Source of the DNA: a virus
UHGV virus genome: UHGV-1550212
DNA: 64,000 nt
Direction: 5' to 3' (one strand)
Numbering within the stretch: the stretch's first letter is position 1; every line of letters starts with the position of its first letter. Shown one piece after another: positions 3,705 to 63,892 of this stretch. Position numbers and translations under genes: made by a program. The notes beneath the pieces are model-generated. The model made no database searches and was not told the origin of the DNA. It saw nothing but the letters and a program-made list of their open reading frames with translations.

Positions 3705-6700
3705 TTAGCCACGAATCAAGTCAACCAAGCGTTGCTGTTCAGGAGTCAATGAAGACTTTCCGCTGCCATCAATGTTTTCGTTAACGAAACCGACTGGCTG
3801 CTTAGTCGAATATGACTTGATTGCAGCCCAGTTACGTGAACGATAGAATGCTGCGACATCTGACTCATTTACGAAAGTGCGAACTGCTGCCTGAGTAGCA
3901 ATCAATGACTTCTGTTCAGGAGTCAAGCTTTCATAAATGTACTTGTATGCTGTTGGCATATGCTTCAGATACAATGGTGTATGGTCAATTGGCTGCAGGT
4001 TCTCATCCAAGACTGCTACACCAGCAGCATCATAGCGAGTTGCAAGCTGCTTTGTTTGACGACGCAATGCAGCAATTTCATGCTTGATGCTTGTCAAGCA
4101 TTCATCAGTTGCTTGTGCGCCAAGATATGTGCGAAGCATATCAGACAGCATCTTCTGATTTGCATCGGTCAAATCACCTGCAACTTCAATGCCAGTCAGC
4201 TGGCCATCTTTGCTGATGACTACAGAAATTGTAGAACCGTCGCGTTCAACTGTGCGGAAGTCAAAGTCATCGTATGACTTATCCTTAAGGACAGCTTCAC
4301 GAATATTGTCATCTACGCCTTCATTGACCATGCTCATGCATTCCTCAACATCTACGTCAAGTCCAAGCTCTTCTGCAGTTTCAGCAATCTTTTCTGCAAG
4401 CTGAGCTTTATTCTCAACTTTGTCAAGGTCTGCTGCATCTGATACAGCATCGACAAGTTCATCTGCCTGTGCACGAGTAATCGTTGAAGCATCAACAAGG
4501 CCATCAATGATTTGCTCTACATCTGCAGGTGTCGGCTTGTTGTCTTCTGCTGCTTCATTGATAAACTTGGCAGTCTTTGGCTTGTAGCTAAGCTTGCCCT
4601 CATTGACCATCTCATCCTGCAATTGTGCAGCGATGTATGCAATTAGCAATGACTTGTTGGCTTCAAGTTCATCGACTGCTTCAGCAGACTTTTGAGCTTT
4701 GATGAGTTCATCGTAAGCTGCTGCAACTTTGTCATCCATCGTAGACTTGTCAGGGTCAATGTTTTTGATGCATGTCTTGACAATATCATCCTGATAGAAC
4801 TTGTCAATGATTGATTTGTCTGTGTCAGAGTATGTTGCATATAACTTGTCTGCGACAATTGATTCATTGACAATCTTGCCTGGCTCAGATGCAGGAACAA
4901 GAGTCCACTTACCATCAACTTCTGCAACAATGCCTGAAGTCGATTCGCCATAAGTGACTGTTAGACGAGTGCCTGCTTCATTGTTGTCAATTGTGTTGAC
5001 GACTGCTTCGAATTCATTACCATCAGCGTCATAGATTTTGATGCTGTCACCGACAGCAGCTTCATCTACTGGTGCTTCGAAGAACTCTTTGACAAAGTTC
5101 TGAACATCAACGGGCAGACTGTCATATGGCTGTGATGCATAGTACTCTGAGTCAGCATCAAGGTAATTCTTTGAAAGCAGCCAAGCTTTTCGAGTAGCAA
5201 CATCTGCAGCATTCCAAGCATCGACTGACTCATCGCAGTCATCGACAAGTGCAAGATACTCATGGTCTTTCTTGTCATCAAAACGAAGAGTAATCTTTTG
5301 TTCGGGCTTGCCAGCAGGCCAAACTTCGACTTCAATTTCTGTAGTGCCTGCAACATTTTTGACTGTGCCTACAACAATCTTGTCGCCTTTGTTGATGCCA
5401 TTAGACATGTCGTATGGTGCTTCAATAGATTCATCTGTCGACTGAGCTCGAATTGCTGCAGCAATAGCATTACGAGATTCATTGTCGAACATCTCCCATG
5501 TAGCATTCGCAGCATCTTCTACACCAATCTTGTCTTTGCCAACCTGCTCAATCAACTGATTGCGGTCAGCTACTGAAGCATTGTACCACCAGTCTGCAGC
5601 AGTGTCAGATGCTTCATTGACAAATGCATTGAGCAATGCAGTCTGAACGTTATCAGGCAACTTGTCAAAGTCAACAAGCTCTACGTCATCTGCAATATTT
5701 GCTTGCTTTGCTGTTGCTTTACGGCCATCTGCATCAGACTTATTCCAGTCATCAATGAATGCCTGTTCAGCAGCAGATTCATCAAGCGCTTTGACAGTTT
5801 CATATCGACCGTCATACAGCATGTACTTATCGCCTTCTTTGATGGCTACAGACTCCTTGCCATTGTACTTGAATGACACTTTGTCACCATTGAAGCCGGT
5901 CAATTCAGCTGTGATTTTATCGCCATTCTTGTCATACACTTCAACTGTCTGCTCTTCATCAATGTTCAAGTGCTTCTTGAGTGCATCTACAAGTTCTTTG
6001 CCAAGAGCGTCTTCATTGTCATGGGCTTGCTGGAAGCAATCTTCATCTGACTTGTCAGGCTGAACAGCTTTCAATGCTGTTGCCCGATTAAGCATTGACA
6101 TCGTGCCCCAGATTGACATGAAGCTTTTGCCCTCATTGTCTTGTGCTTCGGCTTCGTCAATTGCATCAATGTCTTTCTCAAGCATTGCATGATGAGCAAT
6201 GTCGATGCCAGACCATTTCGTCTTTGCATTATATGGCAAACCAATATGCTTCGACAAAATTGACTGACGTTGGTCATCTGTGAATGAATCCCAAGCTTCG
6301 CCAAGTGTTGCATGCTTTGCTTCATCAGCAGCAAATTCTGTTTCAATCTTAAGTTTGTGGTCCTTGTCAATCAGTTGCCACTTGGCATTTGGACGATAGA
6401 ACTCAGACAATGACAGCTTGTCAAGAATGACTTTGCGTTCGTCATCTGACAATTCGTCCCACTTGTTGTCAGCAGATTCATCGATGTTGACGAGTTCTTT
6501 CTCAATGAGATTCTTGTCAAGCATTGCATCAATGATTGGCTGCTGGGCTTCTGCTGGAATGTCTTTGAACGACTTAATTGCAATGACAGCGTCTTTGTCA
6601 TCAACTTTAGCAGCTTCAACAATTTCTGTCTTCACTTCATCAGTCAAAGCGCCCCAAGCAGCATCGAGATAATCAAAGTTGAGAGCTTCATCACATTCAA

Positions 6701-7820
6701 CAATGCCATACTGCTTTGCAATGTCATTGTGCTTGTCAAGATTGCTGTTGAGTTCAGCTTCAATTGCTGCTTTGATGTCATCAATTGACTTATCTTCAAC
6801 TTCAAGCTCAAGAGCTTTTGCAAGTTCAGTCAATGCTGCATCATCAAGCTTGCTAATGTCATAAGGCTTAGCATCTTCATTTGTGAAGTCAATGCCAAGC
6901 AAAGACATTGCTTGCTTCTTGTTTTCTTCTGAGAGTGCATCGAATGCAGTTGCAAGACCGACATCGGTGTAGTCGCACCCAACTTCGTCAAGTAATGCTT
7001 CGACTTTCTGGATGTTTTCTACGCCAACTTCGTTAGCATCAGCATTGTTGTATGCCTCAACAAAACGTGATTGGTTTGTCATGGTAGTGAAATCTTCTAT
7101 TGATTCGTTTATGAGTTGCTGTTTGAGTGCATCCAATGATGCTGAGCCAATCAATGCATCAGGGAATAGCTTCTGCAACATACCTGTACGTGCAAGCTCA
7201 ATCAATTGGAGCATCAATGAGTTTGGCGAGTCTTCGTCATCTACAGATTCACAAATGAGAGTGTCTTTTGATTCATTAACTGAACCGACAAGATTGAACT
7301 CTGCATTCGAAAAGCCTGGCTGTGCAACCAAATCAAATGTCACGATTTTGAGAAGCTGAACTCTGCCAGTAGTTGGATTGACTACGCCAAGGGCGCGACT
7401 TGAAATGAACAATGGCGAACCTGCTGTAACAATTGCCCATGCAATGCGACCTGCAGGCGTATCAAGAATTGTAATGTAGCCTTCAAAACGTCGTTTTTCA
7501 GGATTCCATTCAATACTGTCCAATCTGTGGCTTACGTTTCCATAACGTACAGTACGTCGCTTAACATGTTCAAGTTCGCCAAGAAGTCGCTTTGCTTTAA
7601 TTGCAGGTTGCAATGCCTGTACTTGAGCAAAGTAATTCTCAAAGTCATACGTGCGCCCATTTTCGTTTTTCTGGTCCATGTATGCATACACGCCAAAAAG
7701 ACGACCAAGTGCGCCGCTTGGCACATGAGAATCTTCTGCTTCAACTACAAACTGACAATCTGCGCGGCTTTCAAGCATAAGTGAGGCTTCCCTGCCTTTG
7801 TACTTATATGACTTTGCCAT
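3705..7820 (-). CDS. Prohead core protease-like N-terminal domain (T4 gp21-like, ~210 aa) fused to ~1160-aa highly acidic low-complexity region (scaffold/internal-protein-like)
   Basis: First ATG at 7820 (MAKSYKYK). N-terminus ...NGRTYDFENYF...LLGELEHV...GYITILDTPAGRIA...FISSRALG matches prohead protease motifs as recalled; remainder is Asp/Glu-rich throughout. Confidence 0.6.
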   Translation of the reverse strand: MAKSYKYKGREASLMLESRADCQFVVEAEDSHVPSGALGRLFGVYAYMDQKNENGRTYDFENYFAQVQALQPAIKAKRLLGELEHVKRRTVRYGNVSHRLDSIEWNPEKRRFEGYITILDTPAGRIAWAIVTAGSPLFISSRALGVVNPTTGRVQLLKIVTFDLVAQPGFSNAEFNLVGSVNESKDTLICESVDDEDSPNSLMLQLIELARTGMLQKLFPDALIGSASLDALKQQLINESIEDFTTMTNQSRFVEAYNNADANEVGVENIQKVEALLDEVGCDYTDVGLATAFDALSEENKKQAMSLLGIDFTNEDAKPYDISKLDDAALTELAKALELEVEDKSIDDIKAAIEAELNSNLDKHNDIAKQYGIVECDEALNFDYLDAAWGALTDEVKTEIVEAAKVDDKDAVIAIKSFKDIPAEAQQPIIDAMLDKNLIEKELVNIDESADNKWDELSDDERKVILDKLSLSEFYRPNAKWQLIDKDHKLKIETEFAADEAKHATLGEAWDSFTDDQRQSILSKHIGLPYNAKTKWSGIDIAHHAMLEKDIDAIDEAEAQDNEGKSFMSIWGTMSMLNRATALKAVQPDKSDEDCFQQAHDNEDALGKELVDALKKHLNIDEEQTVEVYDKNGDKITAELTGFNGDKVSFKYNGKESVAIKEGDKYMLYDGRYETVKALDESAAEQAFIDDWNKSDADGRKATAKQANIADDVELVDFDKLPDNVQTALLNAFVNEASDTAADWWYNASVADRNQLIEQVGKDKIGVEDAANATWEMFDNESRNAIAAAIRAQSTDESIEAPYDMSNGINKGDKIVVGTVKNVAGTTEIEVEVWPAGKPEQKITLRFDDKKDHEYLALVDDCDESVDAWNAADVATRKAWLLSKNYLDADSEYYASQPYDSLPVDVQNFVKEFFEAPVDEAAVGDSIKIYDADGNEFEAVVNTIDNNEAGTRLTVTYGESTSGIVAEVDGKWTLVPASEPGKIVNESIVADKLYATYSDTDKSIIDKFYQDDIVKTCIKNIDPDKSTMDDKVAAAYDELIKAQKSAEAVDELEANKSLLIAYIAAQLQDEMVNEGKLSYKPKTAKFINEAAEDNKPTPADVEQIIDGLVDASTITRAQADELVDAVSDAADLDKVENKAQLAEKIAETAEELGLDVDVEECMSMVNEGVDDNIREAVLKDKSYDDFDFRTVERDGSTISVVISKDGQLTGIEVAGDLTDANQKMLSDMLRTYLGAQATDECLTSIKHEIAALRRQTKQLATRYDAAGVAVLDENLQPIDHTPLYLKHMPTAYKYIYESLTPEQKSLIATQAAVRTFVNESDVAAFYRSRNWAAIKSYSTKQPVGFVNENIDGSGKSSLTPEQQRLVDLIRG

Positions 7821-7898
7821 ATTTGAATTGTGTTTGAAAGTTTGCAAATTTTTGTTGTTATTGATTATATATGCAAGGCAGACTTGTGTGTTGAAAAA

Positions 7899-7927
7899 TT
7901 GCAAAATTTCAGTTATGTGTACATAAC
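7899..7927. promoter_or_regulatory. Divergent intergenic region with TTGCAA box and inverted repeat GTTATGT-GT-ACATAAC
   Basis: Between minus gene start 7820 and plus RuvC-like start 7954; 7-bp arms around a TGTACA core at 7912-7927. Confidence 0.3.
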
Positions 7928-19502: not shown

Positions 19503-20993
19503 TTATGCCTTTTTAGATTTGCGCTTTGCGGCAACTACGACTTCTGCTACGATAGCTTCTACAGTAGCTTCAGTTACAACAGACTTGTCTGCAACTTTTA
19601 CAAGAGCTGCATGCAACTTGTAGTTGCCGACTTTGCTGAAAGTGCACTTGAATTCTGTTGTTGCGTTGTATTCTGCAGGTACTGCAAAACCACTGTCAGG
19701 ACCCCATACACCAGTGTCTTCAAATGTCCAAGACTGTCCTTGTGAATCTGTTGCAGCGAATGTCACATGACCATCTTCAGGTGCTTCTACAATTTCATAT
19801 TGCAGCTGAACGCCATCAACACCTGCTTTACCAACGACTTCAGTTGCAAGTGTTGCATTGATTGCAACTTCTGTTGTAGGCTGAATACTTGCAGGGACAT
19901 CTACAGAAATCTTGTATTCTGACACTTCAGGCTGAACTGGCTCAGCAACAACTACTGTAGACTCTGCTTCAACAACTACACTGTCATCAGCAACCTTGGC
20001 AAGAACTGCATGCAACTTGTATGCGCCTGCCTTGCTAAAGATTACAGTGAACTTTGTAGTTGCATTGTATTCTGCTGGAATGTCAAAGCCTACTGCAGGA
20101 CCCCAAGTTCCATTATCGACGAATGTGTATTCATTGCCAGTTGTGTCAGTAGCCTTGAATGTCACATGACCATCTTCAGGTGCTACGTCCACGCCATAAC
20201 GGAACTGAACTTTGTCAACGCCGACGTCGCCAACAGTCTTCGTTTTGAATGTTGCATCAAGCTCAACTTCAGTGTTTTCGATTATTGTTTCAGGTGCAGA
20301 CATTTCGAACTCGTACTCAGACACTGTTTGTGCAGCTTGTTCAAGTTTGATGTTCTTTGTCTTGTTTGAACTCATAGTCTCACGACCAGCATGGCTAATG
20401 TAGCCCTCTTTAGACACTTCCCATACAATTTCTTCGCCTGACAAAACAGTCAACGAATTGCGAACTTCGCCATTCATCTTGATAACTGCATCTGCAGGTT
20501 CTACATTAATTGTCAGTGTAGCTTTGCTAAGCTTAACAAGCTCCACTACTTGAATGACATCATGATTTGTGAGCGTGATTGTGCCCTCCTGAGATTCATA
20601 GCCCTCTTTCGACACTTCCCACTTAATTGGAATGCCTGCGGGCACATTCTCAAGCATCTTTGTAGCCTCACCATTGATTTCTACATGAGCATCTTCAGGC
20701 ACTGGCTGAATTGTGATGCTGAACTTGTCTTTACCAGGTTCAGGGTCTGGTCCGGGTCCTGGGTCATCACCAGTAATTGCAGGGATGATAGTGTTTTCGA
20801 TGACTTTCTGAGCTTCTGCAGTTGTGCCATAGAATTTGAGAGTTTTCTTGGCTTCTTCTACAGACATCTTCTCAAGATTATCTGCAAGATATGTCAGACC
20901 AGTGACTGCAGCAATTTTCTGCCGCATTTCTGGGCTAATGACTACACCAGTAGATTTGACTACTGGAGCAGCTTGTTTTTGTTTCTTTGCCAT
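19503..20993 (-). CDS. Ig-like/beta-sandwich repeat protein (Hoc-like decoration protein candidate)
   Basis: Trimmed to ATG 20993 (MAKKQKQ). Two pairs of internal repeats: ...KWEVSKEGY.. x2 and ..VSEY.....APEDGHVTF.ATD......VPAEYNATT.. x2. Confidence 0.55.
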   Translation of the reverse strand: MAKKQKQAAPVVKSTGVVISPEMRQKIAAVTGLTYLADNLEKMSVEEAKKTLKFYGTTAEAQKVIENTIIPAITGDDPGPGPDPEPGKDKFSITIQPVPEDAHVEINGEATKMLENVPAGIPIKWEVSKEGYESQEGTITLTNHDVIQVVELVKLSKATLTINVEPADAVIKMNGEVRNSLTVLSGEEIVWEVSKEGYISHAGRETMSSNKTKNIKLEQAAQTVSEYEFEMSAPETIIENTEVELDATFKTKTVGDVGVDKVQFRYGVDVAPEDGHVTFKATDTTGNEYTFVDNGTWGPAVGFDIPAEYNATTKFTVIFSKAGAYKLHAVLAKVADDSVVVEAESTVVVAEPVQPEVSEYKISVDVPASIQPTTEVAINATLATEVVGKAGVDGVQLQYEIVEAPEDGHVTFAATDSQGQSWTFEDTGVWGPDSGFAVPAEYNATTEFKCTFSKVGNYKLHAALVKVADKSVVTEATVEAIVAEVVVAAKRKSKKA

Positions 20994-21084
20994 AAGATAT
21001 TGTGAATTTGGTTGTTTATTCTTAACAAAATATGTACATACAGATGCAACAGATGATATGTCAGATACACAAAGCTGCATAAAA

Positions 21085-21122
21085 TGACCAGACTTGCAAA
21101 TAAATTTAAGCAAGTCTGGTCA
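21085..21122 (-). terminator. Intrinsic terminator after DNA polymerase C-terminal gene
   Basis: TGACCAGACTTGC / GCAAGTCTGGTCA, 13-bp stem, AT-rich loop, A4 on plus. Confidence 0.5.
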
Positions 21123-21137
21123 TCAGTTTTGATTGCA

Positions 21138-22430
21138 CTACAACAATGACGGCACTCGTTGAGTTTCAAGTGGGTCGCTGACATTGATGCCTGTGTATGC
21201 AACAAGTCGTTGTATTGGGCCAAGTACGAGTTTTTCGAACATGAGTCGTTTGTTCATTGGCGGCACATCTGGCATATACTTCGGTGTCGGCATTTCGCCT
21301 GGTGCAAAGCCAAATGCATCGCAATATTGACGAGAGCCAATTGGTATATTTGACAAATCTGACTTTGCTCTGTCAACAAAGTAGTAGAACACTCGACCGC
21401 CTTCAATCAATGGGTATCGTGTTTCCAATCCATGTGCTTTGACAAGACAGTTATGCCAACAACATGCTCTATATTGAGGCAGTACACCTTTTGCTAACTG
21501 CCATTCACCATCATAGCTTAGCACATAGTCATGATACTTGTTTGCATTGACATATGCACAAAGTTTCTCCAAGTCTTGCTCGGCTTCAAAGCGTTTCCAT
21601 AATTTCTGTATGAGCTTTGGATATGTCGCAGAAGTTAATTCGCCTCTGAACATTTTCTTGAATGCATAATCAAGCATTTGTCTAACAAGCATTGACGAGC
21701 CTGTTTGAATAAGTTCGATGCCTTTGCCTTGAATGTGCTCAGTAGGGTCTTCGAATACTCGACCATCTACATATATTTGAGCCTTTAAGTACTTTTTCTT
21801 TTGGGCAAATAATGCAGTGTCAGAAATCGTTTCGAGGTCAAATAGCAAAATTGAATTGCCGTGGCGTTTTGCGAGGTCTGCTGCATATGCACCATTGAAT
21901 AACTCTTCCATACGATATTTGAATATCGCAAGAATCAAGTCATACCAATTTTTGCCTATGTAGCCAATTGATTTGACAGTTGGCTCAAAGTGAATGTACA
22001 AAGAGTCTGTATCAATGTACAACACTTTGTCTTCATAAGGCTCTTGCTTTGGCGACACAGACAAATCAAAATTGCCCTTCAATTGTGGGTCATTACGCAG
22101 CTTTTCATGCAATTCATAATCACACCACCACTTATTGTTGAGATAGTCATTTGCTACTCGTTCACCAAAGTGAATGAAGTTGCGGCCTTCAGCAGTAATT
22201 GATTCTGCAACTGCCATATTAAAGAAGTGATAGAAACGATTGCTTGTAGCGCCATATATTGAGTTTCGACAACATTTTGCTGAGACTTGCAGTCCTGCAT
22301 GCTTTAGTGATTCTTGCATTGCAAAATCTCTCAATTCAAATAGACGTTCAGTAGACAACTGGCTTAAATCACCAGTCAAATCTACTCCATCTATTTCAAT
22401 TTTTGACATATCTATCTGAGCTTCTGCCAT
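21138..22430 (-). CDS. DNA polymerase family B, C-terminal fragment (motifs B and C)
   Basis: ...CCRNSIYGATS (KxxxNSxYG) and ...VLYIDTDSLYIHF (YxDTDS); 430 aa; own promoter upstream. Confidence 0.85.
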   Translation of the reverse strand: MAEAQIDMSKIEIDGVDLTGDLSQLSTERLFELRDFAMQESLKHAGLQVSAKCCRNSIYGATSNRFYHFFNMAVAESITAEGRNFIHFGERVANDYLNNKWWCDYELHEKLRNDPQLKGNFDLSVSPKQEPYEDKVLYIDTDSLYIHFEPTVKSIGYIGKNWYDLILAIFKYRMEELFNGAYAADLAKRHGNSILLFDLETISDTALFAQKKKYLKAQIYVDGRVFEDPTEHIQGKGIELIQTGSSMLVRQMLDYAFKKMFRGELTSATYPKLIQKLWKRFEAEQDLEKLCAYVNANKYHDYVLSYDGEWQLAKGVLPQYRACCWHNCLVKAHGLETRYPLIEGGRVFYYFVDRAKSDLSNIPIGSRQYCDAFGFAPGEMPTPKYMPDVPPMNKRLMFEKLVLGPIQRLVAYTGINVSDPLETQRVPSLL

Positions 22431-22451
22431 AAGTTGTTTATTTTTGATTAA

Positions 22452-22481
22452 ATTGTACTACACATGTTGCAATTTTTGCAA
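22452..22481 (-). promoter_or_regulatory. Sigma70-like promoter (TTGCAA-N18-TACAAT)
   Basis: Direct reading; upstream of polymerase C-terminal gene. Confidence 0.45.
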
Positions 22482-22499
22482 TACACATGTTAAACCAAA

Positions 22500-22528
22500 A
22501 TGCAGCAGCAGATGTTCTGCTGCTGCAT
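22500..22528 (-). terminator. Intrinsic terminator after 22572..23399
   Basis: ATGCAGCAGCAGA-TGT-TCTGCTGCTGCAT, 13-bp perfect stem, T-rich sense downstream. Confidence 0.6.
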
Positions 22529-22571
22529 CGGCAGGTATCTTCACAATTGTTTGAGTTGATTGCAATGCGAT

Positions 22572-23399
22572 TTAGAATGGCAGGTCGCCATCATCACCTA
22601 CAGCATCAAAATCAGCAGCAATGTCATATACCAACGTCATTGCGATTCGCAAATCACGTTTCTTAGATTTCAGACGCATGATGTCATGACCTGAATTGTT
22701 TGTGATGACTGAGCATTCAAACTCTTCATTGCCGTCGATGAATGACAGCATTGATTTGTGAATTGTGATTGGCGACAAATCTGACGGATATGACGAATCA
22801 ATCACATATTCAAAGTTGTTGTTCTTGGCAATTAGGCCTCGTTCAGTTGTGCGAATCTCAATGCCGGGCAGTTCCTTGTCACCTGTATTCAATGAGCCAT
22901 ACGATGACATGATGCCAAAGTGATTTGACGTCAAATCGAGCTTTCTCAGATTTGTTGTGCTATCAAACAGCATTGACATATCATTGTCAGACAGCTCAAA
23001 GTAGCCAAGTGATGGCATTGAACAAACCTGATTGATTTTGAGCTGATTGTTTGAGATTACAATGAGCTCTGCAATTGTATCTGTACCAATTTGTTTGACA
23101 TAGATTTCAATCATTGCATATGAGCCAAATGCAGCAAGTACTCGATTGTTGAATTGCGTGCCATTGTAAATAAGCGCCTTGACTGTGACATCTTTGAGTG
23201 TAGACTCATAATGTTCGCAAATGTCAAGCACATTAAGTGTCTGCGACTTTACAAAGCTACTATTGCCAGCATCAGTTCTGATTCGCTGGTCATTGAGTGA
23301 AAAGCTAAGCTTGCCATCGCATTTTAATGATGATGCAAACAATGCTCGCAGCATATCAATGTTTGCATTGCGTAACGTAATTTTGTTCAGATTTTCCAT
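22572..23399 (-). CDS. Hypothetical protein (275 aa); possible sliding clamp
   Basis: ATG start; acidic C-terminus; size and location between polymerase halves; clamp assignment weak. Confidence 0.5.
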   Translation of the reverse strand: MENLNKITLRNANIDMLRALFASSLKCDGKLSFSLNDQRIRTDAGNSSFVKSQTLNVLDICEHYESTLKDVTVKALIYNGTQFNNRVLAAFGSYAMIEIYVKQIGTDTIAELIVISNNQLKINQVCSMPSLGYFELSDNDMSMLFDSTTNLRKLDLTSNHFGIMSSYGSLNTGDKELPGIEIRTTERGLIAKNNNFEYVIDSSYPSDLSPITIHKSMLSFIDGNEEFECSVITNNSGHDIMRLKSKKRDLRIAMTLVYDIAADFDAVGDDGDLPF

Positions 23400-23433
23400 C
23401 TTGTATCTATGTTGTTGATTTTCAATTTAATAT

Positions 23434-23462
23434 ATTGAACAACATTTGTTGACATTTTGCAA
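23434..23462 (-). promoter_or_regulatory. Sigma70-like promoter (TTGCAA-N17-TTCAAT)
   Basis: Direct reading; upstream of 22572..23399. Confidence 0.4.
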
Positions 23463-23467
23463 CATTG

Positions 23468-23842
23468 TCATCGATTGTCGCCTGACCCATGCAATACACC
23501 TCGCAATTTTCGAGACTGCAGTTTCTGAATGTTAAGCTGACAAATGTCAGTTAAGCTGTAGCCCAAATCATGTGCAAGAGTTGCAGCATACCACATGACA
23601 TCGCTGAGCTCTTTTGCGATTTCCTTGCGAATGTCTTCATTATCAAAATCACCATTCTTGTCTCGAATGACTTTTTTGACTTTGTCTGCAACTTCGCCTG
23701 CTTCACCCGTTAAGCCAAGTGTTGGATAGATAATTGCAGCTGATTTAGGATATACTGCGCTATCAAGCGCAGCAGTCTGATATTCATCAATAGTTGAAAT
23801 CCAAGTGTGGTCGATTACGCCGTGTTCATCTCGTTTAAGCAT
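23468..23842 (-). CDS. MazG-like nucleoside triphosphate pyrophosphohydrolase
   Basis: ...LTGEAGEVADKVKK...ELSDVMWYAATLA (MazG EExxE/D-type motifs). Confidence 0.6.
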   Translation of the reverse strand: MLKRDEHGVIDHTWISTIDEYQTAALDSAVYPKSAAIIYPTLGLTGEAGEVADKVKKVIRDKNGDFDNEDIRKEIAKELSDVMWYAATLAHDLGYSLTDICQLNIQKLQSRKLRGVLHGSGDNR

Positions 23843-23843
23843 A

Positions 23844-24335
23844 TCATTTACGTTTTTGTTTGACTCTTAATCGTTTTTGCATAAATGCTCTTGTAGCTTC
23901 ACCAAAAGCCATCTCGTCTCGTTCGCCACCACAAAGCTTTGCAAGCTTATTGAATGTGTCTTGGTCAATCATTGTGTACGTTGAGTTGTTGACCACATGC
24001 AATGCAAACTGAATCAGCGGTGCGCCTGGCTGCAAGCAGAATGGCTCTTTACCTGCATTGTACACTGCAAGATGAATCTCGCCATGATAGTCTGAATCTA
24101 CAAACTCACTTGTTTTGATGATAAGATGATTTCGTGAAATGCCCGACTTATTGTAGGCAATCAATGCATGACCGGCAGGCACAAGTGCTTTGATGCCAGA
24201 TGGAATTGCAATGCCCTCACCAGGTTGCAGCATTGTTTGCACAAAATCATTGGGTATGCAAAAGTCCCATGCGCCAGATTCTGCTGTTGACTTAAAAGGA
24301 CTTTCTACATTTCTGCATTTTGCAAAGAATAACAT
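23844..24335 (-). CDS. dUTPase-family protein (dUTPase or dCTPase)
   Basis: ...FVDSDYHGEIHLAVYN (dUTPase motif III-like). Confidence 0.6.
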   Translation of the reverse strand: MLFFAKCRNVESPFKSTAESGAWDFCIPNDFVQTMLQPGEGIAIPSGIKALVPAGHALIAYNKSGISRNHLIIKTSEFVDSDYHGEIHLAVYNAGKEPFCLQPGAPLIQFALHVVNNSTYTMIDQDTFNKLAKLCGGERDEMAFGEATRAFMQKRLRVKQKRK

Positions 24336-24358
24336 ATTAAGTATGTGTTTGTATGTTG

Positions 24359-24703
24359 TTAGTACATTTCTCGTTTAACAAGAGCTTTGCGTTTTGAGCG
24401 TAGCCCTGCCCTATTACGTAATTCTACTGACCAATCACGAATCATTTGCCATGCAATCCCACCACGTTGAATACCACCGTGCTTGAACATTTCATTGCAA
24501 ATACCTTGAATAAACACCGCATCAGACTTTGTCAATGCGTCAACAATTTGACCATGGTTGTCTTCTGTCTTGACATCATTGCAAAGCTTAAGCTCATCTA
24601 CTGAAAGTTCGCCAAGCAGCTCATAGTAGTATATGAGAGCTTTGCGTGCGGCAATTGCTTTTCTTGAATTGCCAGAATAAGACAAAGTCACATGTTTGCT
24701 CAT
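24359..24703 (-). CDS. Hypothetical protein (114 aa)
   Basis: Trimmed to ATG 24703. Confidence 0.5.
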   Translation of the reverse strand: MSKHVTLSYSGNSRKAIAARKALIYYYELLGELSVDELKLCNDVKTEDNHGQIVDALTKSDAVFIQGICNEMFKHGGIQRGGIAWQMIRDWSVELRNRAGLRSKRKALVKREMY

Positions 24704-24723
24704 ATTCAATTATTGTTATGGTG

Positions 24724-26229
24724 TTACAATTTGATTGCGCCTCTACGAGCAAGCTCTTCTTCAATCAATCGAACATGATTGTTAGCATACCAAAATTGCA
24801 ATTTTTTGTGATAATTGCGAACGTTGCCAAGCTGTTCTTGAGTTTCTTTATACATTGAAGGCTCTCTGTTGTCATACAGACAATTGTTGACTGACACAAA
24901 GTAATTTGGGTCTGCTTTGTAATGCTCAATTTCATCAGGATTTGTTAAACGTCTAATAAAGTTGTCTGGTGAAATATTCGCCGAGCGCATACTTGACGGA
25001 TACAATGAGTTTGCGTCAACACAGACAACCATACGAGCCCAATGGTTAAATGGTTGCTTAACAAAGCCGCCCTCAAATGAATGTACTACATTCTCTGGGC
25101 CACCTTGAGCACATACAACTTTGCCGCCATATTTGTTGTATAAGTATGTCATCATGACGCCCTCAGATTGCTTAACTGGTCCTTGGCAGTGATTCATGTC
25201 AATATTTGTCATATTTGACAATGACATCACATTTGATATCAAGTCAGTTTTTGCAGCAATCATTGCATTGACCATAGTATCGACAGCATTGTATGCAATG
25301 AATGTGCATGGATGATACAAATACAGCTCTTTAAGTGTGCAATCATAGGGCAACTTACCTACGCCGAACATACGATGTGCAATGTAGTCAAGTCGCAATG
25401 ATTCCTTTTGCCACACTGAATAGTCGTATGTGTCCATGAGCTGCATGTAGTCATCAATGTACTTGTGATATGGCATACCATTGCCCCAGACAGTTCTGCC
25501 AACTGGAGATGCCAATGCTAAATCAATATTGTGCATTGCGCATCGATTTTTGACATAGATGTTATCGAAGTCATTGATGTTCCAGCCTGTCAATGCAGGA
25601 ATGTTTTTGAAGAGCTTAGTCACCCAAAAATGCAACAATTCATGCTCATTTGCATGTTGAAAAATTTTGACAGTTGGATGTTCTTTCAAATACGCAGCAA
25701 AGCAATGTTGACCCATATACTCTTGAATGATGCCATTGACAAACTCAAATGCATCATCCAATGTTGGGTTTTGTTTGCCGCAGCTTTTGCGCAAATCATC
25801 ATCATTCAACAAGTCAACAGTAGTCTGAATGACACAATTGCATTGTTCATCGCATGTACTTATTGCATTAATGGGCATTTCAGCTTTGTCAGGCTTTGGA
25901 AAGCCATTGCCAATTTCAGTCTCAATATCGTAAAAGTACAACTTTGGTCTACGATAAGCAAACAATTCAGCTTTGTCAGCTTCAGGCAATTCAAATAAGA
26001 ATTGCAGCAAGTCAAATTGATTGAATCGTTTTGCTGTGACTCGAGTCACTGGCAATTTACGCCAATCTTGAATATCTGCATATTGAGGCTCTACGTGGTC
26101 TGATATTTGCCACACTGGAAATTGATATGGCTGTTCACAGACTGGGTATGTTTTGATGTCAATGCCACCTTGCTCATTAACATATGAGACTTCAATGCCA
26201 TGTGACAAATATGCTACGTCAACAATCAT
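24724..26229 (-). CDS. DNA polymerase family B, N-terminal fragment (3'-5' exonuclease + motif A)
   Basis: FYDIETE (Exo I), NINDFD (Exo II), YNAVD (Exo III), VDANSLYPS (motif A); 501 aa. Confidence 0.85.
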   Translation of the reverse strand: MIVDVAYLSHGIEVSYVNEQGGIDIKTYPVCEQPYQFPVWQISDHVEPQYADIQDWRKLPVTRVTAKRFNQFDLLQFLFELPEADKAELFAYRRPKLYFYDIETEIGNGFPKPDKAEMPINAISTCDEQCNCVIQTTVDLLNDDDLRKSCGKQNPTLDDAFEFVNGIIQEYMGQHCFAAYLKEHPTVKIFQHANEHELLHFWVTKLFKNIPALTGWNINDFDNIYVKNRCAMHNIDLALASPVGRTVWGNGMPYHKYIDDYMQLMDTYDYSVWQKESLRLDYIAHRMFGVGKLPYDCTLKELYLYHPCTFIAYNAVDTMVNAMIAAKTDLISNVMSLSNMTNIDMNHCQGPVKQSEGVMMTYLYNKYGGKVVCAQGGPENVVHSFEGGFVKQPFNHWARMVVCVDANSLYPSSMRSANISPDNFIRRLTNPDEIEHYKADPNYFVSVNNCLYDNREPSMYKETQEQLGNVRNYHKKLQFWYANNHVRLIEEELARRGAIKL

Positions 26230-26244
26230 ATATCATTATCTTTT

Positions 26245-26655
26245 TTAGAATAGAGATATTGTACAACAATTTGATTCAGGTTGCCATTCTACAATATGCG
26301 CATCAAAGTGTTTGTTAAGCCAATGTGCAAGTATGTGTCTATGACAAAATGCAGATAGTCTGCACCAACATAACAATACAATGTCTCGTTCGCCTGCAAG
26401 AATCTTTATGCGATGCAGCATCAAACTTATCTGTGACAATGCAGCGTCAAGTTTTGCTGCATATTGCTCTGCATATTGTGCATTGTCAAGCAAGCCTGCT
26501 TTATGCAAACGAACAAGTGACATGTAATCAGGCATGACGTCAGTCCATGTAAAATCTGCTATGAAGCCCTTAGGCTTTGTTGCAGACACTTGAACAAGAA
26601 ATGCGTTATCAGGCAGATGCCTGCATGCATAATATGAAGTTAAGATTCTTGTCAT
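26245..26655 (-). CDS. DUF488-like protein
   Basis: ...DIVLLCWCRLSAFCHRHILAHWL resembles DUF488 signature as recalled. Confidence 0.4.
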   Translation of the reverse strand: MTRILTSYYACRHLPDNAFLVQVSATKPKGFIADFTWTDVMPDYMSLVRLHKAGLLDNAQYAEQYAAKLDAALSQISLMLHRIKILAGERDIVLLCWCRLSAFCHRHILAHWLNKHFDAHIVEWQPESNCCTISLF

Positions 26656-27575
26656 TCTACAATAATTGTTGCAAGTTTGTTAATTGGCTGTATGAACACA
26701 TCAAAACCCTTAACAGTGCCGAACGCGTTTCGTTTGACTGCATATAACATTGCAGTGTTCACATCATGCTTTGCATAACGAGTTTCAATGACTTGACTGA
26801 TGTAGCCTTTTGAGTCTCGAATGTATTCTATGCTTGTAGCAATTTTGTTTGCTTTGATAGAATTTACTGTTATCAATGCATCATTCTGACCATACGCATA
26901 TTGCATTGTTGCTGTAGATGGCTTTGCAGCATTTACACTTAACTGCTGAATGACTTGCATTTTGCGACCATGCGAATCATAGTAATATGTGAATGTGCAT
27001 GGAAACTTGCCAACCAAACTGTTCAAATGATGCAACTGCTCATAATGATAGCTGAACTGCACTACACTGCTATTAGATTCGCAAATGCTGCTTGGTCTAT
27101 AGTAGCCATTGAAGTACCCATACTGAATTGAGTATGTTTCAAAACGACCTCTACGATACAAACTCAACAAACTAAGCATATTCGTCGCTTCATCAATATG
27201 CAAGAACTTGATGTCTGCGCATGCATTGCTCTTGGCATAATCAGCTGCATTCCACTTATCAACGACTTTCCAAGAGTAGCATTTGATGCTTTGATTGCGC
27301 TCATTGACAAAGTGTATACCATTTGACTGCACCTTTACAATGTCATAGCAATTCAAATGCCCATTACTGTCAATGAATTTTTGCAGCCAATTTAAAGCCA
27401 TGATGTTTGTTGCAAATGTCTGTGCAAATGCAATTTGGCCATCTGCAAATGCTGCAGTGTATGTCTTGTTCTTATCGTAGATTGGCAATGTCGCATCTGC
27501 ATATGATGCTGCTACAAATGCATAGCCAATCACATTATTCTCAGAACTCAAATTAGAGTGTCTTAACTGTTCCAT
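26652..27575 (-). CDS. Hypothetical protein (307 aa)
   Basis: ATG start, ATGA overlap. Confidence 0.6.
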   Translation of the reverse strand: MEQLRHSNLSSENNVIGYAFVAASYADATLPIYDKNKTYTAAFADGQIAFAQTFATNIMALNWLQKFIDSNGHLNCYDIVKVQSNGIHFVNERNQSIKCYSWKVVDKWNAADYAKSNACADIKFLHIDEATNMLSLLSLYRRGRFETYSIQYGYFNGYYRPSSICESNSSVVQFSYHYEQLHHLNSLVGKFPCTFTYYYDSHGRKMQVIQQLSVNAAKPSTATMQYAYGQNDALITVNSIKANKIATSIEYIRDSKGYISQVIETRYAKHDVNTAMLYAVKRNAFGTVKGFDVFIQPINKLATIIVE

Positions 27576-28307: not shown

Positions 28308-28350
28308 CTTATTTATGATTTGATGTCTTGTTATATTATTATATGTTGAT

Positions 28351-28379
28351 ATTGTACAACGCTAAGTGTCATTTTGCAC
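28351..28379 (-). promoter_or_regulatory. Sigma70-like promoter (GTGCAA-N17-TACAAT)
   Basis: Direct reading; upstream of 27738..28307. Confidence 0.45.
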
Positions 28380-43783: not shown

Positions 43784-44842
43784 TTACTGCTTCAAGCCTG
43801 TGAACAGTTCATACTTGAATGCAGGCCCTGCTGTGTAAGCCTCAAAGTAGAAGTCACCAATATTGATGCTTGCAATAGCGTCATCGACAGCTTTCTTGTA
43901 GCCTACACGTTCAATTGTCTGCTTATCGCATTTACGCCAATATGTGCTGTGCATCATAAGCGTGGGTGATGCAGCATAGTCTACTGCAAGCTGTTGTTTT
44001 GCAGTGTCAATGTGATGTTCATAGATGTGCACATCATTGCCAGTCCAAATGAACTCTCTTGCCACACAGTTAGTCAATGTTGCAACAATATGTGTAAGCA
44101 ATGCATATGATGCGATATTGATGGGCACACCAAGACACATGTCACAGCTACGCTGAGTAAGCGCACAGTCAAGCCACATGCTTGGTACTTGAGCAGAATC
44201 AAGGCATTCTGCAGAACCATCATGCACAAGCATGCTATCATTAGCAATCTGAATTCGTTCTTCAAGAGTCATTGGCTGACAATTGAACTGAAACAGCATA
44301 TGACATGGCGGCAATGCCATCTGAGACATTTGCGCAGGATTCCATGCAGACACGACTTTGTAGCGGCCAGTTGGATTGATGACAATGTCTTTAATGCAAG
44401 TTGCAAGTTGGTCAAATCCACTGTCATTGAAGTTGCGCCACTGATACCCATAGATAGGTCCGCAATCACCATACTCAGGTTTGCTGAATTTTGTGTTGTG
44501 CAGTTCTGTGCACCAAGTGTCAAAGTCGACATCTTCACCTGGATGCAGCTTTTGCCAATGACGATATGCATCCTGATGCCAGAACTTTGTAATGCCAAGC
44601 GTGTCAAGCGTTTTGACATTAGTGTCACCTGACATAAACCACAGAAGTTCTCCAATGACGCCTTTGACAAACATTCTCTTGGATGTCAACAGTGGAAAGC
44701 CTTTACGCAAATCAAATCGCATTGATTCTACAAACAATGACTTTGTGCGAGGCATGTTTTCACGAGCAGGTTCCTTAAATCTGCCATGCTCAATAACATT
44801 ATTAAGTACTCTCAAGTACTCAGTGTCGTGTTTGATATTCAT
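43784..44842 (-). CDS. thyA: Thymidylate synthase (ThyA family) with an internal insertion
   Basis: FPLLTSKRMFVKGVIGELLWFMSG, GPIYGYQWRNF, ALPPCHMLFQF, QRSCDMCLGVPINIASYALL; Asn at the pyrimidine-specificity position. Confidence 0.8.
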   Translation of the reverse strand: MNIKHDTEYLRVLNNVIEHGRFKEPARENMPRTKSLFVESMRFDLRKGFPLLTSKRMFVKGVIGELLWFMSGDTNVKTLDTLGITKFWHQDAYRHWQKLHPGEDVDFDTWCTELHNTKFSKPEYGDCGPIYGYQWRNFNDSGFDQLATCIKDIVINPTGRYKVVSAWNPAQMSQMALPPCHMLFQFNCQPMTLEERIQIANDSMLVHDGSAECLDSAQVPSMWLDCALTQRSCDMCLGVPINIASYALLTHIVATLTNCVAREFIWTGNDVHIYEHHIDTAKQQLAVDYAASPTLMMHSTYWRKCDKQTIERVGYKKAVDDAIASINIGDFYFEAYTAGPAFKYELFTGLKQ

Positions 44843-48065: not shown

Positions 48066-48947
48066 TTATCGTTTGAATTTGATGAAGTGTTCAGCATCAA
48101 GGCCCTCAAATATGTACGGGTCAAGAGTTTCCCAGAAGTTTGAGTATGTCGTTGTCTTTGCAATACTTGTCTGCTTTGACAAGTTCATGTTTGGATAGCC
48201 AAGCATTGCATAGTGTCGCTCATATATGTGCATTGACGTTGCATTATGCATATAAGCGCCAAGCTTAAGACCAAGTTCATTTGCGACAAGTTCTTGCAAC
48301 AAAGTGAATGCAAACTGGTCGTTACAGAAGCCCCAAATGACATCATTGCTTCGCATATATGTTGTCAAGTACAGCTTATCACCACGAACATTGAAAACAA
48401 GATTCAATGTGCACGGCATATCTTTGCCAGTGTAGTTTGCATATTGCGGCTCATAAATGCTAATAACTGCTCGTCTTGTGCATTCATGATTTCGCAAACG
48501 TTCAATGACATCTGCAATCTGCTTGTGCCAAATTGCGCCATACTGTGAATTGACATTGACGCCATCATCACTGAACTGCTTCCAACGAGGCAAATAACGT
48601 TCAATGCATTCAACTGCAGGATTGGCTGTCATATACCATGCAAATTCTGCAGCAGCATTGAGCTTTTTCCATGGTCGTACATCAATCTTGATTTGTCGCT
48701 GTGAAGGGTCCTGAATAACTACAGACACATTCAGCAATTCTTTTGTTCGAGTCACTGTTTGTGCATTGTTGCCCTTTGATTCTACAAACTCACCTCTACA
48801 ATGAAGTTCATACAAAATTGAGCGAAATGCTTCTGTTGCAGTGTTTTCAACGATTGTCGTCTGTTGATAGCATAAATTTGACGACAATGCTTCAGCATCA
48901 TTGTACTTTATGCTGTCATTGTCATAAGGTGAATTTTTTGTGTGCAT
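48066..48947 (-). CDS. dCMP hydroxymethylase-like ThyA-fold enzyme (T4 gp42-like)
   Basis: ...DMPCTLNLVF, YMRSNDVIWGFCNDQFAF, SMHIYERHY; Asp at the position where thymidylate synthases have Asn. Start at 48947 chosen; ATG at 49088 also possible (would overlap HAD gene). Confidence 0.65.
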   Translation of the reverse strand: MHTKNSPYDNDSIKYNDAEALSSNLCYQQTTIVENTATEAFRSILYELHCRGEFVESKGNNAQTVTRTKELLNVSVVIQDPSQRQIKIDVRPWKKLNAAAEFAWYMTANPAVECIERYLPRWKQFSDDGVNVNSQYGAIWHKQIADVIERLRNHECTRRAVISIYEPQYANYTGKDMPCTLNLVFNVRGDKLYLTTYMRSNDVIWGFCNDQFAFTLLQELVANELGLKLGAYMHNATSMHIYERHYAMLGYPNMNLSKQTSIAKTTTYSNFWETLDPYIFEGLDAEHFIKFKR

Positions 48948-48972
48948 ATTTTGGGATGTTTGTTTTTTATTA

Positions 48973-50067
48973 TCATACAACGATAGTATCTCGTTTGCAA
49001 TCTGTTTTGTCAAATATTGAACAACAATACGATGCAGATTGTTCTTTGATTTCAAGAGCTTCATCATTATCAAGTGATGAAATGCCATCTATGTATGCTT
49101 TTGCATTGCCAGCAATGTCATCATTTGTTAACAACGCTGCACGACGTTCAGTGCCAAAGAAGCCAAAGCACAATTGATGTTGCAGTGCTTCACGAGAAGT
49201 CTTGTCATCAAACTCTGATTTCATGTGTTGCATAAATTCGACAATATCATCAATGTCGCATTGAGTAAAGTCAATGCACAATTTATGCATGTACTTGAAT
49301 CGTTTGTAGTCTGTTGCAAGAATTTCTGGGTGCACAATGAACAACGTCTTTTTGCTGTCTATTGGATTTGCAATGACTGATGCTTGAACATAATCGACAA
49401 GCATACCAGATTCACGAAGTTGCTCAATTGTTTTGCCAAACACATGCCCAAGCGTGTCATCAAACCACTTCAAGTATGCTTCACTGTCTTCATCTTTTGA
49501 CGCGCCAACAATGTAAATCTCATTGACTCCAAGTGCTTTGAGACGAGTATCAGACAACATAGTATTCAATTGATGCTGCACGTACAGCATTGGGCTGCTA
49601 TGCAAAACCGTTTTAACAATCTCACAAGCAATGTCCATATATGCATAGTCAAGCTTTGCAGATTTTGACACATACACTGCACGTTGCTGCAATGGCTCAA
49701 TTGCCGAGCATGTAGTTACAAAGTTGCCAACACATTCTGCTACTGCAATGTCATGCAAGTCATCTGCAATGTACACAATACTTGACAAGTCATCAAATGT
49801 TTGAACAAGTTGCTGAAGCTTTGTTTTGTAATTGCAGAGCATCAATGACTTGATGTTGCAATTACTTAGCATTGTCTTGATGAGTCGTTGACCTGCTTCA
49901 GTGCTGTCACCAGAAATGACATGCACATCGCAGTCAAACCAGTTCAGCATGTCAATTGCATGCCGAACACCATATTGCATTTGTTTTGCAAACTTACCAG
50001 ATTCATTGAACAGCATTTCACCTGACATAATGCCGTCAAAGTCACATACGATTTGAAGTCTGTCCAT
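48973..50067 (-). CDS. HAD-superfamily phosphatase domain protein with C-terminal domain
   Basis: VCDFDGIM (motif I DxDG), VHVISGDS, IADDLHD. Confidence 0.55.
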   Translation of the reverse strand: MDRLQIVCDFDGIMSGEMLFNESGKFAKQMQYGVRHAIDMLNWFDCDVHVISGDSTEAGQRLIKTMLSNCNIKSLMLCNYKTKLQQLVQTFDDLSSIVYIADDLHDIAVAECVGNFVTTCSAIEPLQQRAVYVSKSAKLDYAYMDIACEIVKTVLHSSPMLYVQHQLNTMLSDTRLKALGVNEIYIVGASKDEDSEAYLKWFDDTLGHVFGKTIEQLRESGMLVDYVQASVIANPIDSKKTLFIVHPEILATDYKRFKYMHKLCIDFTQCDIDDIVEFMQHMKSEFDDKTSREALQHQLCFGFFGTERRAALLTNDDIAGNAKAYIDGISSLDNDEALEIKEQSASYCCSIFDKTDCKRDTIVV

Positions 50068-54402: not shown

Positions 54403-54417
54403 ATATTATATGTTGAT

Positions 54418-54446
54418 ATTGTACAACATATGTTATCATTTTGCAA
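54418..54446 (-). promoter_or_regulatory. Sigma70-like promoter (TTGCAA-N17-TACAAT)
   Basis: Direct reading. Confidence 0.45.
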
Positions 54447-54783
54447 GCATTTTGATGATTGCATCTATCACAGTTTCACTGAGCAAGTAGTAGACAACGC
54501 TTATCAGCAATGATATCAGTACTGCAGCTGTGATAAATTGCAACGCATTCACAATTGCACGCACAAATGTTATCTGCGTGTTGTATGCAAGCACTATGCA
54601 GCATAGCACAATAATGACACACCAGACTACAATTGCATATGCAGGCATCAATGAATTTGTCCATATGCAGTACAATACAGTAATTAGCATCAAAAATGCT
54701 ATTGCTCTGATAACTGACACAATGATGTCTATGTAAGGCTTCATTGCACGCAAATGAACTCTTGGTTTATGTTGCTTCATCAT
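54436..54783 (-). CDS. Multi-pass membrane protein (115 aa)
   Basis: ATG start; hydrophobic. Confidence 0.55.
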   Translation of the reverse strand: MMKQHKPRVHLRAMKPYIDIIVSVIRAIAFLMLITVLYCIWTNSLMPAYAIVVWCVIIVLCCIVLAYNTQITFVRAIVNALQFITAAVLISLLISVVYYLLSETVIDAIIKMLAK

Positions 54784-58109: not shown

Positions 58110-58164
58110 TGGCAGGTTTCTTGCTTTGTAAAGCTTGGATAGAGGATGGATTTTATATGTTGAT

Positions 58165-58193
58165 ATTGTACAACATGCAAAATGCATTTGCAT
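58165..58193 (-). promoter_or_regulatory. Sigma70-like promoter (ATGCAA-N17-TACAAT)
   Basis: Direct reading; proximal of a tandem pair. Confidence 0.4.
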
Positions 58194-59039: not shown

Positions 59040-59068
59040 ACAGTACAACGTAGTTATGCTCATTGCAC
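59040..59068 (-). promoter_or_regulatory. Weak sigma70-like promoter (GTGCAA-N17-TACTGT)
   Basis: Direct reading. Confidence 0.3.
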
Positions 59069-63863: not shown

Positions 63864-63892
63864 GTTCGTATTGTTTTATCATATATGAATAT

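Follow-up and report, generated by a model that had tools for sequence, protein, structure and literature searches.

The locus described here occupies positions 21,138 to 26,229 of a 64,000-nucleotide (nt) stretch of DNA from the virus genome UHGV-1550212 (the whole stretch is referred to as the window). It consists of six open reading frames (ORFs) with the same coordinates as in the initial annotation of the sequence, all encoded on the minus strand, as are all genes within the 18–28 kb region of the window (table 1). The two outer ORFs, both of them complete with a start codon and a stop of their own, encode the N-terminal half (polN) and the C-terminal half (polC) of a family-B DNA polymerase. 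The 2.3-kb gap between them holds four expressed-looking genes, one of which encodes a protein of 275 amino acids (aa) that is identified below, from its predicted structure, as a sliding clamp. With a probability of roughly 85%, a jumbo myovirus of the PAU/PTm1/MA9V lineage here encodes its replicative family-B DNA polymerase permanently as two genes, and the enzyme is assembled non-covalently from two separate proteins.

Table 1. Positions of the genes, motifs, and candidate regulatory elements of the polymerase locus within the window
Feature	Position	Strand	Details
polN (PolB N-half)	24724..26229	−	501 aa; C-terminal end ...EELARRGAIKL*
Exo I, FYDIETE	25915..25935	−	In polN
Exo II, GWNINDFDNIY	25555..25587	−	In polN
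Exo III, YNAVD	25279..25293	−	In polN
Motif A, DANSLYPS	24994..25017	−	In polN; centre of the patch recoded relative to L012
polC (PolB C-half)	21138..22430	−	430 aa
Motif B, KCCRNSIYG	22251..22277	−	In polC; patch recoded relative to L010 and L012
Motif C, YIDTDS	22002..22019	−	In polC
KKKY	21789..21800	−	In polC
Small ORF	24359..24709	−	116 aa from TTG; more likely 114 aa from ATG at 24703
Trimeric-type dUTPase family	23844..24335	−	163 aa; Pfam E 7e-11, NCBIfam dut E 2e-13
MazG-type nucleoside-triphosphate pyrophosphohydrolase	23468..23842	−	124 aa; Pfam E 8e-9, phrog_229 E 1e-35
Sliding clamp (from predicted structure), divergent PCNA/beta/gp45 superfamily member	22572..23399	−	275 aa; acidic C-terminal tail ending DDGDLPF
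Terminator-like hairpin	22499..22529	−	3' of the clamp gene; 14-bp stem, 3-nt loop, then TTTTGGTTT
polN promoter-like core	26256..26268	−	Exact TGTTGTACAATAT; 26 nt from the polN ATG, within the 3' end of a DUF488-like ORF upstream
Clamp promoter-like element	23432..23462	−	TTGCAA 23457..23462; core TGTTGTTCAATAT 23432..23444, 1 mismatch; 32 nt from ATG
polC promoter-like element	22450..22481	−	TTGCAA 22476..22481; core TGTAGTACAATTT 22450..22462, 2 mismatches; 19 nt from ATG
Empty site after the polN stop	24710..24723	−	14-nt spacer; occupied by an insert in L012 (L012:6483-7713, 399-aa ORF)
Empty site after the clamp hairpin, upstream of polC	22484..22496	−	Occupied by an insert in L010 (L010:2321-3547, 382-aa ORF)

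The complete set of catalytic motifs of a T4 gp43-type family-B polymerase was located, each motif once, and is partitioned between the two genes. polN contains the N-terminal domain, the 3'–5' exonuclease with Exo I (DxE), Exo II (NxxxFD), and Exo III (YxxxD), the first part of the palm with motif A (DxxSLYPS), and the first fingers helix; polC contains the second fingers helix with motif B (KxxxNSxYG), the palm with motif C (DTDS) and a KKRY-type motif, and the thumb. The whole fold is covered colinearly with every domain represented. This is the division that had been claimed in the initial annotation (Exo I–III and motif A in the upstream gene, motifs B and C in the downstream gene), to which the KKKY motif of polC can be added, and no motif missing from one half turned up in the other.

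Protein family searches led to the same assignment. polN matches the Pfam model DNA_pol_B_exo1 (E = 1.4e-12) as well as the first ~60 positions of the catalytic model DNA_pol_B, and polC matches positions 153–353 of the latter (E = 3.6e-15). Within the PHROGs, the two proteins match end to end two separate, half-sized "DNA polymerase" families, one per half: polN matches phrog_2062 (positions 99–500 of 502, E = 2e-61) and polC matches phrog_1918 (positions 12–372 of 382, E = 5e-46). In combination, the halves cover phrog_262, the full-length T4-type family (positions 111–489 and 504–842 of 856).

The break was mapped by alignment to the T4 and RB69 polymerases, the approach that the initial annotation had proposed. 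Sequence searches against solved structures aligned polN residues 94–427 with residues 107–433 of RB69 gp43, polN residues 48–476 with residues 61–485 of T4 gp43, and polC residues 21–100 with residues 529–608 of RB69 gp43. When the joined halves were aligned to RB69 gp43 using MAFFT, the last residue of polN corresponded to RB69 residue 510 and the first residue of polC to residue 511, leaving a colinear junction with zero residues absent and zero surplus. The break sits 3' of motif A and ahead of motif B, between the two long fingers helices. The fingers domain of RB69 consists of two long antiparallel helices (residues ~469–572), which places a break at 510/511 in the fingertip loop.

A Pfam scan identified no intein or Hint domain in either half (E ≤ 0.01), and the positive control of the scan, gp239 and gp241 of phage PTm1, did match Intein_splicing. 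Likewise, no Rfam intron, including group I, was found within positions 20500..27000 at E ≤ 1, the sole match being a chance hit to a snoRNA. The initial annotation had seen no signature of an intein or group I intron and had concluded that the enzyme must be assembled from two polypeptides. Both statements are borne out, because a complete junction that contains neither an intein nor an intron implies that the halves can work only as two polypeptides.

Based on the RB69 fold, the polN and polC proteins would be produced separately and then associate non-covalently into a single enzyme through the pairing of the two antiparallel fingers helices, one from each half, and through the completion of the palm sheet with strands of both chains, motif A being supplied by one chain and motif C by the other. 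The clamp would then tether the assembled polymerase. Published precedents exist for such an enzyme. A gene 43 that is split at the fingertip (43A/43B) is present in the T4-like phages 25, 44RR, 31, 65, and 133, where the ORFs are separated by 2 bp to 3 kb (PMC3061061), a bicistronic organization described by Petrov et al. (2006, 2010, as cited in PMC2988022 and PMC3061061). In phage 25, the 43A protein co-purifies with 43B and the two show activity (PMC2988022), cutting Pfu polymerase at the fingertip leaves its kinetics at the wild-type level (PMC3061061), and DNAP-N and DNAP-C of phage PhiKZ form a stable 1:1 complex (PMC13648687). Physical assembly of the halves encoded in the window is expected by analogy with these three systems, the only ones for which activity as one enzyme has been shown.

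All split N-halves that were examined (window positions 24724..24760 and the loci L001, L002, L003, L004, L009, L043, and L091), from the jumbo phage clade as well as from the T4-like phages 25 and 133, end 3–8 residues past a basic motif, RRG[IVLA] or RRKK (ELARRGAIKL, ELERRGVLKI, EKRRGLVDSI, AERRGIKL.., LKRRGINP.., KKRRGITT.., LASRGIKTDH, and LARRKK). The basic RRG-type motif is not found in the unsplit RB69 polymerase. The shared end could reflect convergence or a common ancestry of the split fingertips.

A megablast search of the locus against 50,697 phage records returned no match at the DNA level. At the protein level, relatives of polN were found in the Chryseobacterium phages MA9V-1/2 (36%), the Tenacibaculum phages PTm1, PTm5, and pT24, the Sphingomonas phage PAU, huge metagenomic phages, and Lak phages. 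Among the best 150 N-half relatives out of 1.84 billion representative proteins, 95 have a length of 440–540 aa and 31 are full-length-sized. In RB69 numbering, the break is located at residue 508 in MA9V-1, 515/516 in PAU, 510/511 in PTm1, and 512/514 in the 43A/43B pair of Aeromonas phage 25; the comparison with split gene 43, which the initial annotation had also put forward, therefore shows a break only two residues off that of the window. A split position common to distant phages, together with the 95 half-sized proteins among the 150 relatives, indicates that the split is ancient.

The relatives differ in the organization of the genes around the break. The gene order is polN-dUTPase-two ORFs-clamp-polC in PAU and polN-356-aa ORF-clamp-polC in MA9V-1, and the metagenomic locus L009 contains six genes in the gap. 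In PTm1, polN is followed by the clamp gene, an endonuclease-like gene, and a C-half that is itself divided at motif C, where the two parts of a split intein flank an endonuclease gene. The C-half is located ~10 kb (>10 kb) downstream of polN in LR756500 and is not found within 12 kb in LR756504, and in Lak-B5 (L007) the pieces of the C-half lie upstream of the N-half in a permuted order. The annotated genomes of phages 25 and 133 contain a seg-type homing endonuclease gene and eight ORFs (~2.9 kb), respectively, between 43A and 43B. In a survey of 78 IMG/VR loci, the T4-like and cyanophage genes were unsplit with gp45 upstream, one group (L033, L061-L063, L072, and L078) was split just before motif C, and the fingertip-split group included contigs of 137–405 kb. 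A search for related loci with polC alone returned the same species only. Overall, the fingertip split is the rule within the PAU/PTm1/MA9V/Lak clade and the arrangement in the window is not unusual. The novelty is limited to a species-level addition to a known type of split polymerase, and the added value lies in the identity of the clamp, the shared promoter class, and the endonuclease polymorphism.

The dUTPase and MazG genes of the gap, both named in the initial annotation, were confirmed by matches in Pfam, NCBIfam, and the PHROGs. The small ORF next to polN is present where it had been called, as a protein of 116 aa, but gene calls in the sister strains suggest the shorter reading frame (table 1); it is 98–100% conserved in the sister strains L010 and L012 and has no match in Pfam, PHROGs, NCBIfam, or PDB. 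The 275-aa protein that had been noted in the gap can be refined to a sliding clamp, in which case the gap is not filler: it would combine the processivity factor of the polymerase with two enzymes that clean the pool of deoxynucleoside triphosphates (dNTPs).

The identification of the clamp is based on a chain of relatives and on a structural model. The protein has no sequence-family match in Pfam, PHROG, or NCBIfam. It is related to gp237 of PTm1 and to ORF137 of MA9V-1 (MA9V_137; blastp, E = 1e-10 for both), and these link on to gp109 of PAU (PAU–PTm1, E = 3e-16), which was classified as a gp45-like clamp by Kazlauskas et al. (HMMER E < 0.001, PMC4889955). A fold search with the predicted structure identified the clamp-domain fold, a beta-alpha-beta-beta-beta unit that is repeated twice; within residues 179–255 the secondary structure of the model repeats the domain pattern, but the predicted local distance difference test (pLDDT) score is below 50 there. 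ORFs of ~275 aa between polymerase halves, which are still listed as "hypothetical" in MA9V-1 and PTm1, merit annotation as sliding clamps.

The C-terminus of the clamp (22572..22610) is an acidic tail, ...DFDAVGDDGDLPF. The C-terminal tip of bacterial single-stranded DNA-binding proteins (SSBs) reads DDDIPF or DDDLPF, which the tail resembles. The idea that the protein is an SSB was rejected by the fold search, which returned a clamp. The tail is kept in P0009 and P0010 (DDLPF), whereas PAU, PTm1, and MA9V-1 have a different acidic and aromatic sequence in its place. None of the other ORFs in the window carries an SSB-like tail of this kind.

A recurrent motif of the phage, TTGCAA-N17-TGTTGTACAATAT, is located upstream of polN, the clamp gene, and polC. 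The coding strand of the window contains four exact copies of the 13-mer TGTTGTACAATAT, and 81 matches were found when up to three mismatches were allowed, compared with 51.8 ± 7.6 matches in shuffled sequences (0 of 100 shuffles reached 81). Good copies lie 19–60 nt upstream of start codons, with TTGCAA located ~17 nt ahead of the core. The copies at polN, the clamp gene, and polC are conserved in the sister strains (the polN core exactly so in L012), and the copy upstream of the clamp gene is also found in a relative with a 76% identical clamp. Judged from the sequence, the motif is probably the main promoter class of the phage. More widely, the motif in the form TTGCAA(AATG)-N~17-TGTTGTACAATAT precedes many genes of the window, often followed by CAACATATAAT (examples on the minus strand are 63891..63903, 58163..58175, 54416..54428, 28349..28361, and 26256..26268), and it is not of the Bacteroidota TTTG/TAnnTTTG type.

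The promoter that had been annotated at 22452..22481 upstream of polC is a copy of this recurrent motif, but its likeness to a sigma-70 promoter is not above chance. A generic sigma-70 scan gave 23 sites compared with 16.8 ± 4.3 expected from shuffled sequences, which means that such a scan is not evidence on its own, and TTGCAA-18-TACAAT at this position scored only 9 of 12 matches. Two other candidates for the recurrent motif, the exact 21-mer of this promoter and the 8-mer CATGTGTA, were rejected as neither recurs. The terminator hairpin described in the initial annotation was retained, with its 14-bp stem followed by TTTTGGTTT: a stem-loop of unrelated sequence lies at the same place, directly after the clamp gene, in four relatives (L010, MA9V-1, PAU, and PTm1), and at least eight other hairpins with a T-run, similar to this one, are present at gene boundaries in the window. 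Compared with its counterpart in L010 (L010:2289-2317), the hairpin has an identical stem and an inverted loop (AACAT versus ATGTT), which looks like a flip of the palindrome centre.

With polN, the clamp gene, and polC each located behind a copy of one promoter-like motif and the clamp gene followed by a terminator-like hairpin, we propose that the three parts of the holoenzyme would be expressed as separate but co-regulated units. The activities of the promoter and the terminator, like the co-regulation, are inferred from sequence features. The exonuclease half, the clamp, and the polymerase half would then share one promoter class.

The two sister strains L010 and L012 are ~94% identical to the window at the nucleotide level and differ from it by 1.23-kb inserts at the two edges of the gap, where the window carries empty sites (table 1). 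The inserts encode homing-endonuclease-like paralogs of the DUF7487 family, for which the predicted structure matches I-Bth0305I and contains a PD-(D/E)xK-type catalytic domain, and they are polymorphic for presence and absence at fixed sites beside a conserved target gene. The adjacent polymerase sequences are heavily recoded, with synonymous changes in the majority. In polN, 79 of the 123 nucleotide differences between strains fall within codons 381–480, and codons 401–420 (motif A) differ from L012 by 21 nucleotide changes with only three amino acid changes; codons 41–60 of polC (motif B) carry 26–27 nucleotide changes with five amino acid changes. The L012 cassette ends with an exact copy of the promoter motif ahead of the next gene.

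Homing without an intron, combined with immunity of the target site, would be expected to leave an insert next to a recoded patch; recoded patches of this kind could also have come from recombination with a divergent phage. A tentative explanation, which we consider possible but rather doubtful, is that the edges of the gap are active landing sites of a multi-copy family of DUF7487 endonucleases that recognise the coding sequences of motif A (the insert after polN) and motif B (the insert ahead of polC), that the window represents the naive allele with empty sites, and that the split itself is a fossil of invasion. Under this homing scenario, each cassette carries its own copy of the phage promoter so that the downstream genes stay expressed. 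The fingertip split would then be kept as a safe harbour for endonucleases, and the phage population would offer a natural system for intron-less homing into a split essential gene; more speculatively, the open fingertip may help the enzyme to use hypermodified dNTPs. Comparison of the sister strains makes it possible to test whether homing endonucleases cycle at the edges of an essential gene that is split.

The same cassettes bear on an alternative explanation in which the gap is a recent mobile insertion (e.g., a homing-endonuclease cassette) into an intact gene, which would make the split young and possibly deleterious. The DUF7487 genes at both edges of the gap in the sister strains, their resemblance to I-Bth0305I, and the seg-type endonuclease between 43A and 43B of Aeromonas phage 25 are in agreement with such an event. 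However, the gap of the window contains no endonuclease gene, the residue position of the split is shared with phages of only 26–36% identity (MA9V-1, PAU, PTm1, Lak, and huge phages), half-sized proteins make up 95 of the 150 best relatives of polN, and members of the clade retain the clamp gene within the gap. Both halves are, furthermore, under purifying selection between strains, with 25 amino acid changes among 123 nucleotide differences in polN and 17 among 116 in polC. For the phage in the window, a recent insertion is largely refuted and we regard it as very unlikely. An even smaller chance is given to a polymerase whose halves are rejoined by a split intein, trans-splicing of a split intron, translational bypass, or read-through. 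A split intein that encloses an endonuclease gene does occur in PTm1 (gp239-gp241, L002:12522-15328), but at motif C and not at the fingertip. In the window, rejoining is contradicted by the lack of a Hint or intein domain in either half, by a junction with zero unaccounted residues relative to RB69, by the lack of an Rfam intron at E ≤ 1, and by the 2.3 kb with four genes and a terminator that separate the halves; the >10-kb separation in LR756500 and the permuted order of the halves in Lak-B5 exclude rejoining in cis. That the apparent break stems from a mis-join in the assembly or from a decayed gene, the polymerase being in reality intact or dead, has a negligible probability. Nothing points to it beyond the general possibility that exists for metagenome-derived sequences, and the initial annotation had named an artefact as one of the findings that would undo its claim. 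The arrangement is reproduced in the independent assemblies L010, L012, and L009, the stop after ...RRGAIKL and the same gap genes recur in Logan ERR13912692 and IMG/VR 3300045988_149023, and the isolate genomes of PAU, PTm1, and MA9V-1 share the layout, which together show that the break is not an artefact; the ratio of synonymous to non-synonymous changes shows selection on both halves.

The split could also be adaptive, either because an open fingertip admits bulky or hypermodified dNTPs or because the halves can be dosed or exchanged independently. Pfu polymerase with a fingertip split and a Q484R substitution makes wider use of gamma-phosphate-modified nucleotides, and the authors of that study speculated likewise for the natural splits (PMC3061061). 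The gene set of the window (two thymidylate-synthase-family genes, glycosyltransferase-like genes, dUTPase, and MazG) is suggestive of modified DNA, the DNA of PAU has been reported to be heavily modified (PMC7824862), and all split N-halves end just past the shared basic RRG-type motif. These associations are no more than correlations. The unsplit polymerases of T4 and RB69 incorporate hydroxymethyl-dCTP, and closely related T4-like phages include some with the split and some without it. An adaptive role is considered unlikely, albeit less so than the three explanations above.

The permanently divided, non-covalently assembled polymerase with its own clamp in the gap remains the preferred explanation, and a number of observations count against parts of it. 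The clamp model is of low confidence in its C-terminal domain (pLDDT < 50), the similarity of the clamp family to gp45 is not significant (hhalign E = 0.062, probability 0.9%), and a search of PDB sequences with the clamp-family profile gave chance matches only. No clamp loader was found among the window ORFs that were scanned; PAU and MA9V-1 encode one elsewhere in their genomes. The function of the promoter-like motif is deduced only from its recurrence. Finally, the spacer between the clamp gene and polC in L009 is 26 nt long and contains neither a hairpin nor the motif, which means that the relatives do not uniformly require polC to be transcribed as a unit of its own. The claim that polC forms its own transcription unit is plausible for the window, given its hairpin and motif, but does not apply universally.

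Several features outside the gap were recorded in the window. A DUF488-N3a-family protein of 136 aa (26245..26655, minus strand) is encoded immediately upstream of polN. Two thymidylate-synthase-family and three glycosyltransferase-like genes are located on the minus strand at 43784..44842, 48066..49088, 54780..56018, 56000..57175, and 59060..60616, and together with the dUTPase and MazG genes they suggest hypermodified DNA, possibly with glycosylated hydroxymethyl-pyrimidines. Two large fusion proteins are encoded on the same strand: a 1399-aa protein (3705..7904) of which only the N-terminal ~350 residues match a prohead protease, and a 1308-aa protein (50432..54358) that combines an SbcD-like metallophosphoesterase with an SbcC-like ATPase. 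The window contains no tRNA genes. A Shine-Dalgarno-like core within 16 nt of the start codon is present in only 2 of the 54 window genes and the upstream regions are A-rich, which fits a Bacteroidota-type host as in the nearest relatives (Chryseobacterium, Tenacibaculum, and Prevotella).

Among known systems, the locus most closely resembles PAU (gp105 and gp110), PTm1, and MA9V-1. These phages share with the window the break position, the strand, the gene order, similar half sizes (487–501 aa and 404–430 aa), a clamp gene of the PAU gp109 family inside the gap with a stem-loop after it, and a syntenic gene downstream of polC; in PAU, a dUTPase-type gene adjoins polN as it does in the window. 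The window proteins are, however, only 28–36% identical to theirs and the remaining gap content differs: the window carries an ORF of no known family, a trimeric dUTPase, and MazG, whereas MA9V-1 has a single 356-aa ORF without an assigned function beside the clamp gene, and PTm1 has a homing-endonuclease-like gene and a polymerase that is divided once more, at motif C, by a split intein. Half-sized "DNA polymerase" ORFs in jumbo phages should not be annotated as fragments or pseudogenes.

The T4-like phages 25, 44RR, 31, 65, and 133 share the fingertip split (RB69 512/514 in phage 25 compared with 510/511 in the window), an N-half of ~500 aa, and a similar basic end (ILASRGIKTDH and ILARRKK compared with ELARRGAIKL). 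They differ in that they belong to the Straboviridae, are only ~26% identical, have close unsplit relatives (T4 and RB69), and carry gp45 upstream of the polymerase gene in the order 45-44-62-regA-43 instead of between the halves. In the "fractured genes", in which split inteins lie on either side of a free-standing endonuclease gene (PMC2677866), and in gp239-gp240-gp241 of PTm1, a polymerase gene is likewise distributed over separate ORFs with genes between, and endonucleases of the Vsr or I-Bth0305I type (Vsr-type in the case of the PTm1 intein) are associated with the break. Unlike there, the junction in the window has no intein halves and no protein splicing, and the pieces stay separate.

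The chimallivirus PhiKZ also has a two-polypeptide family-B polymerase that works with a clamp-fold partner (PMC13648687), but this polymerase belongs to a different, highly divergent PolB clade, and its partner Rhc is a single clamp-related domain that is fused to RNase H and binds as one subunit, whereas the clamp in the window is predicted to be free-standing, two-domain, and gp45-sized. Engineered Pfu and the naturally split Methanothermobacter PolB illustrate that a family-B enzyme with a cut in the fingers or close to them regains wild-type kinetics on reassembly (PMC3061061), although the Pfu split is artificial and translationally coupled and the Methanothermobacter split is located in the palm, ~83 residues further on. 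The locus does not overturn the current understanding of these enzymes; it is a well-resolved example of a family-B fingertip that tolerates a permanent break.

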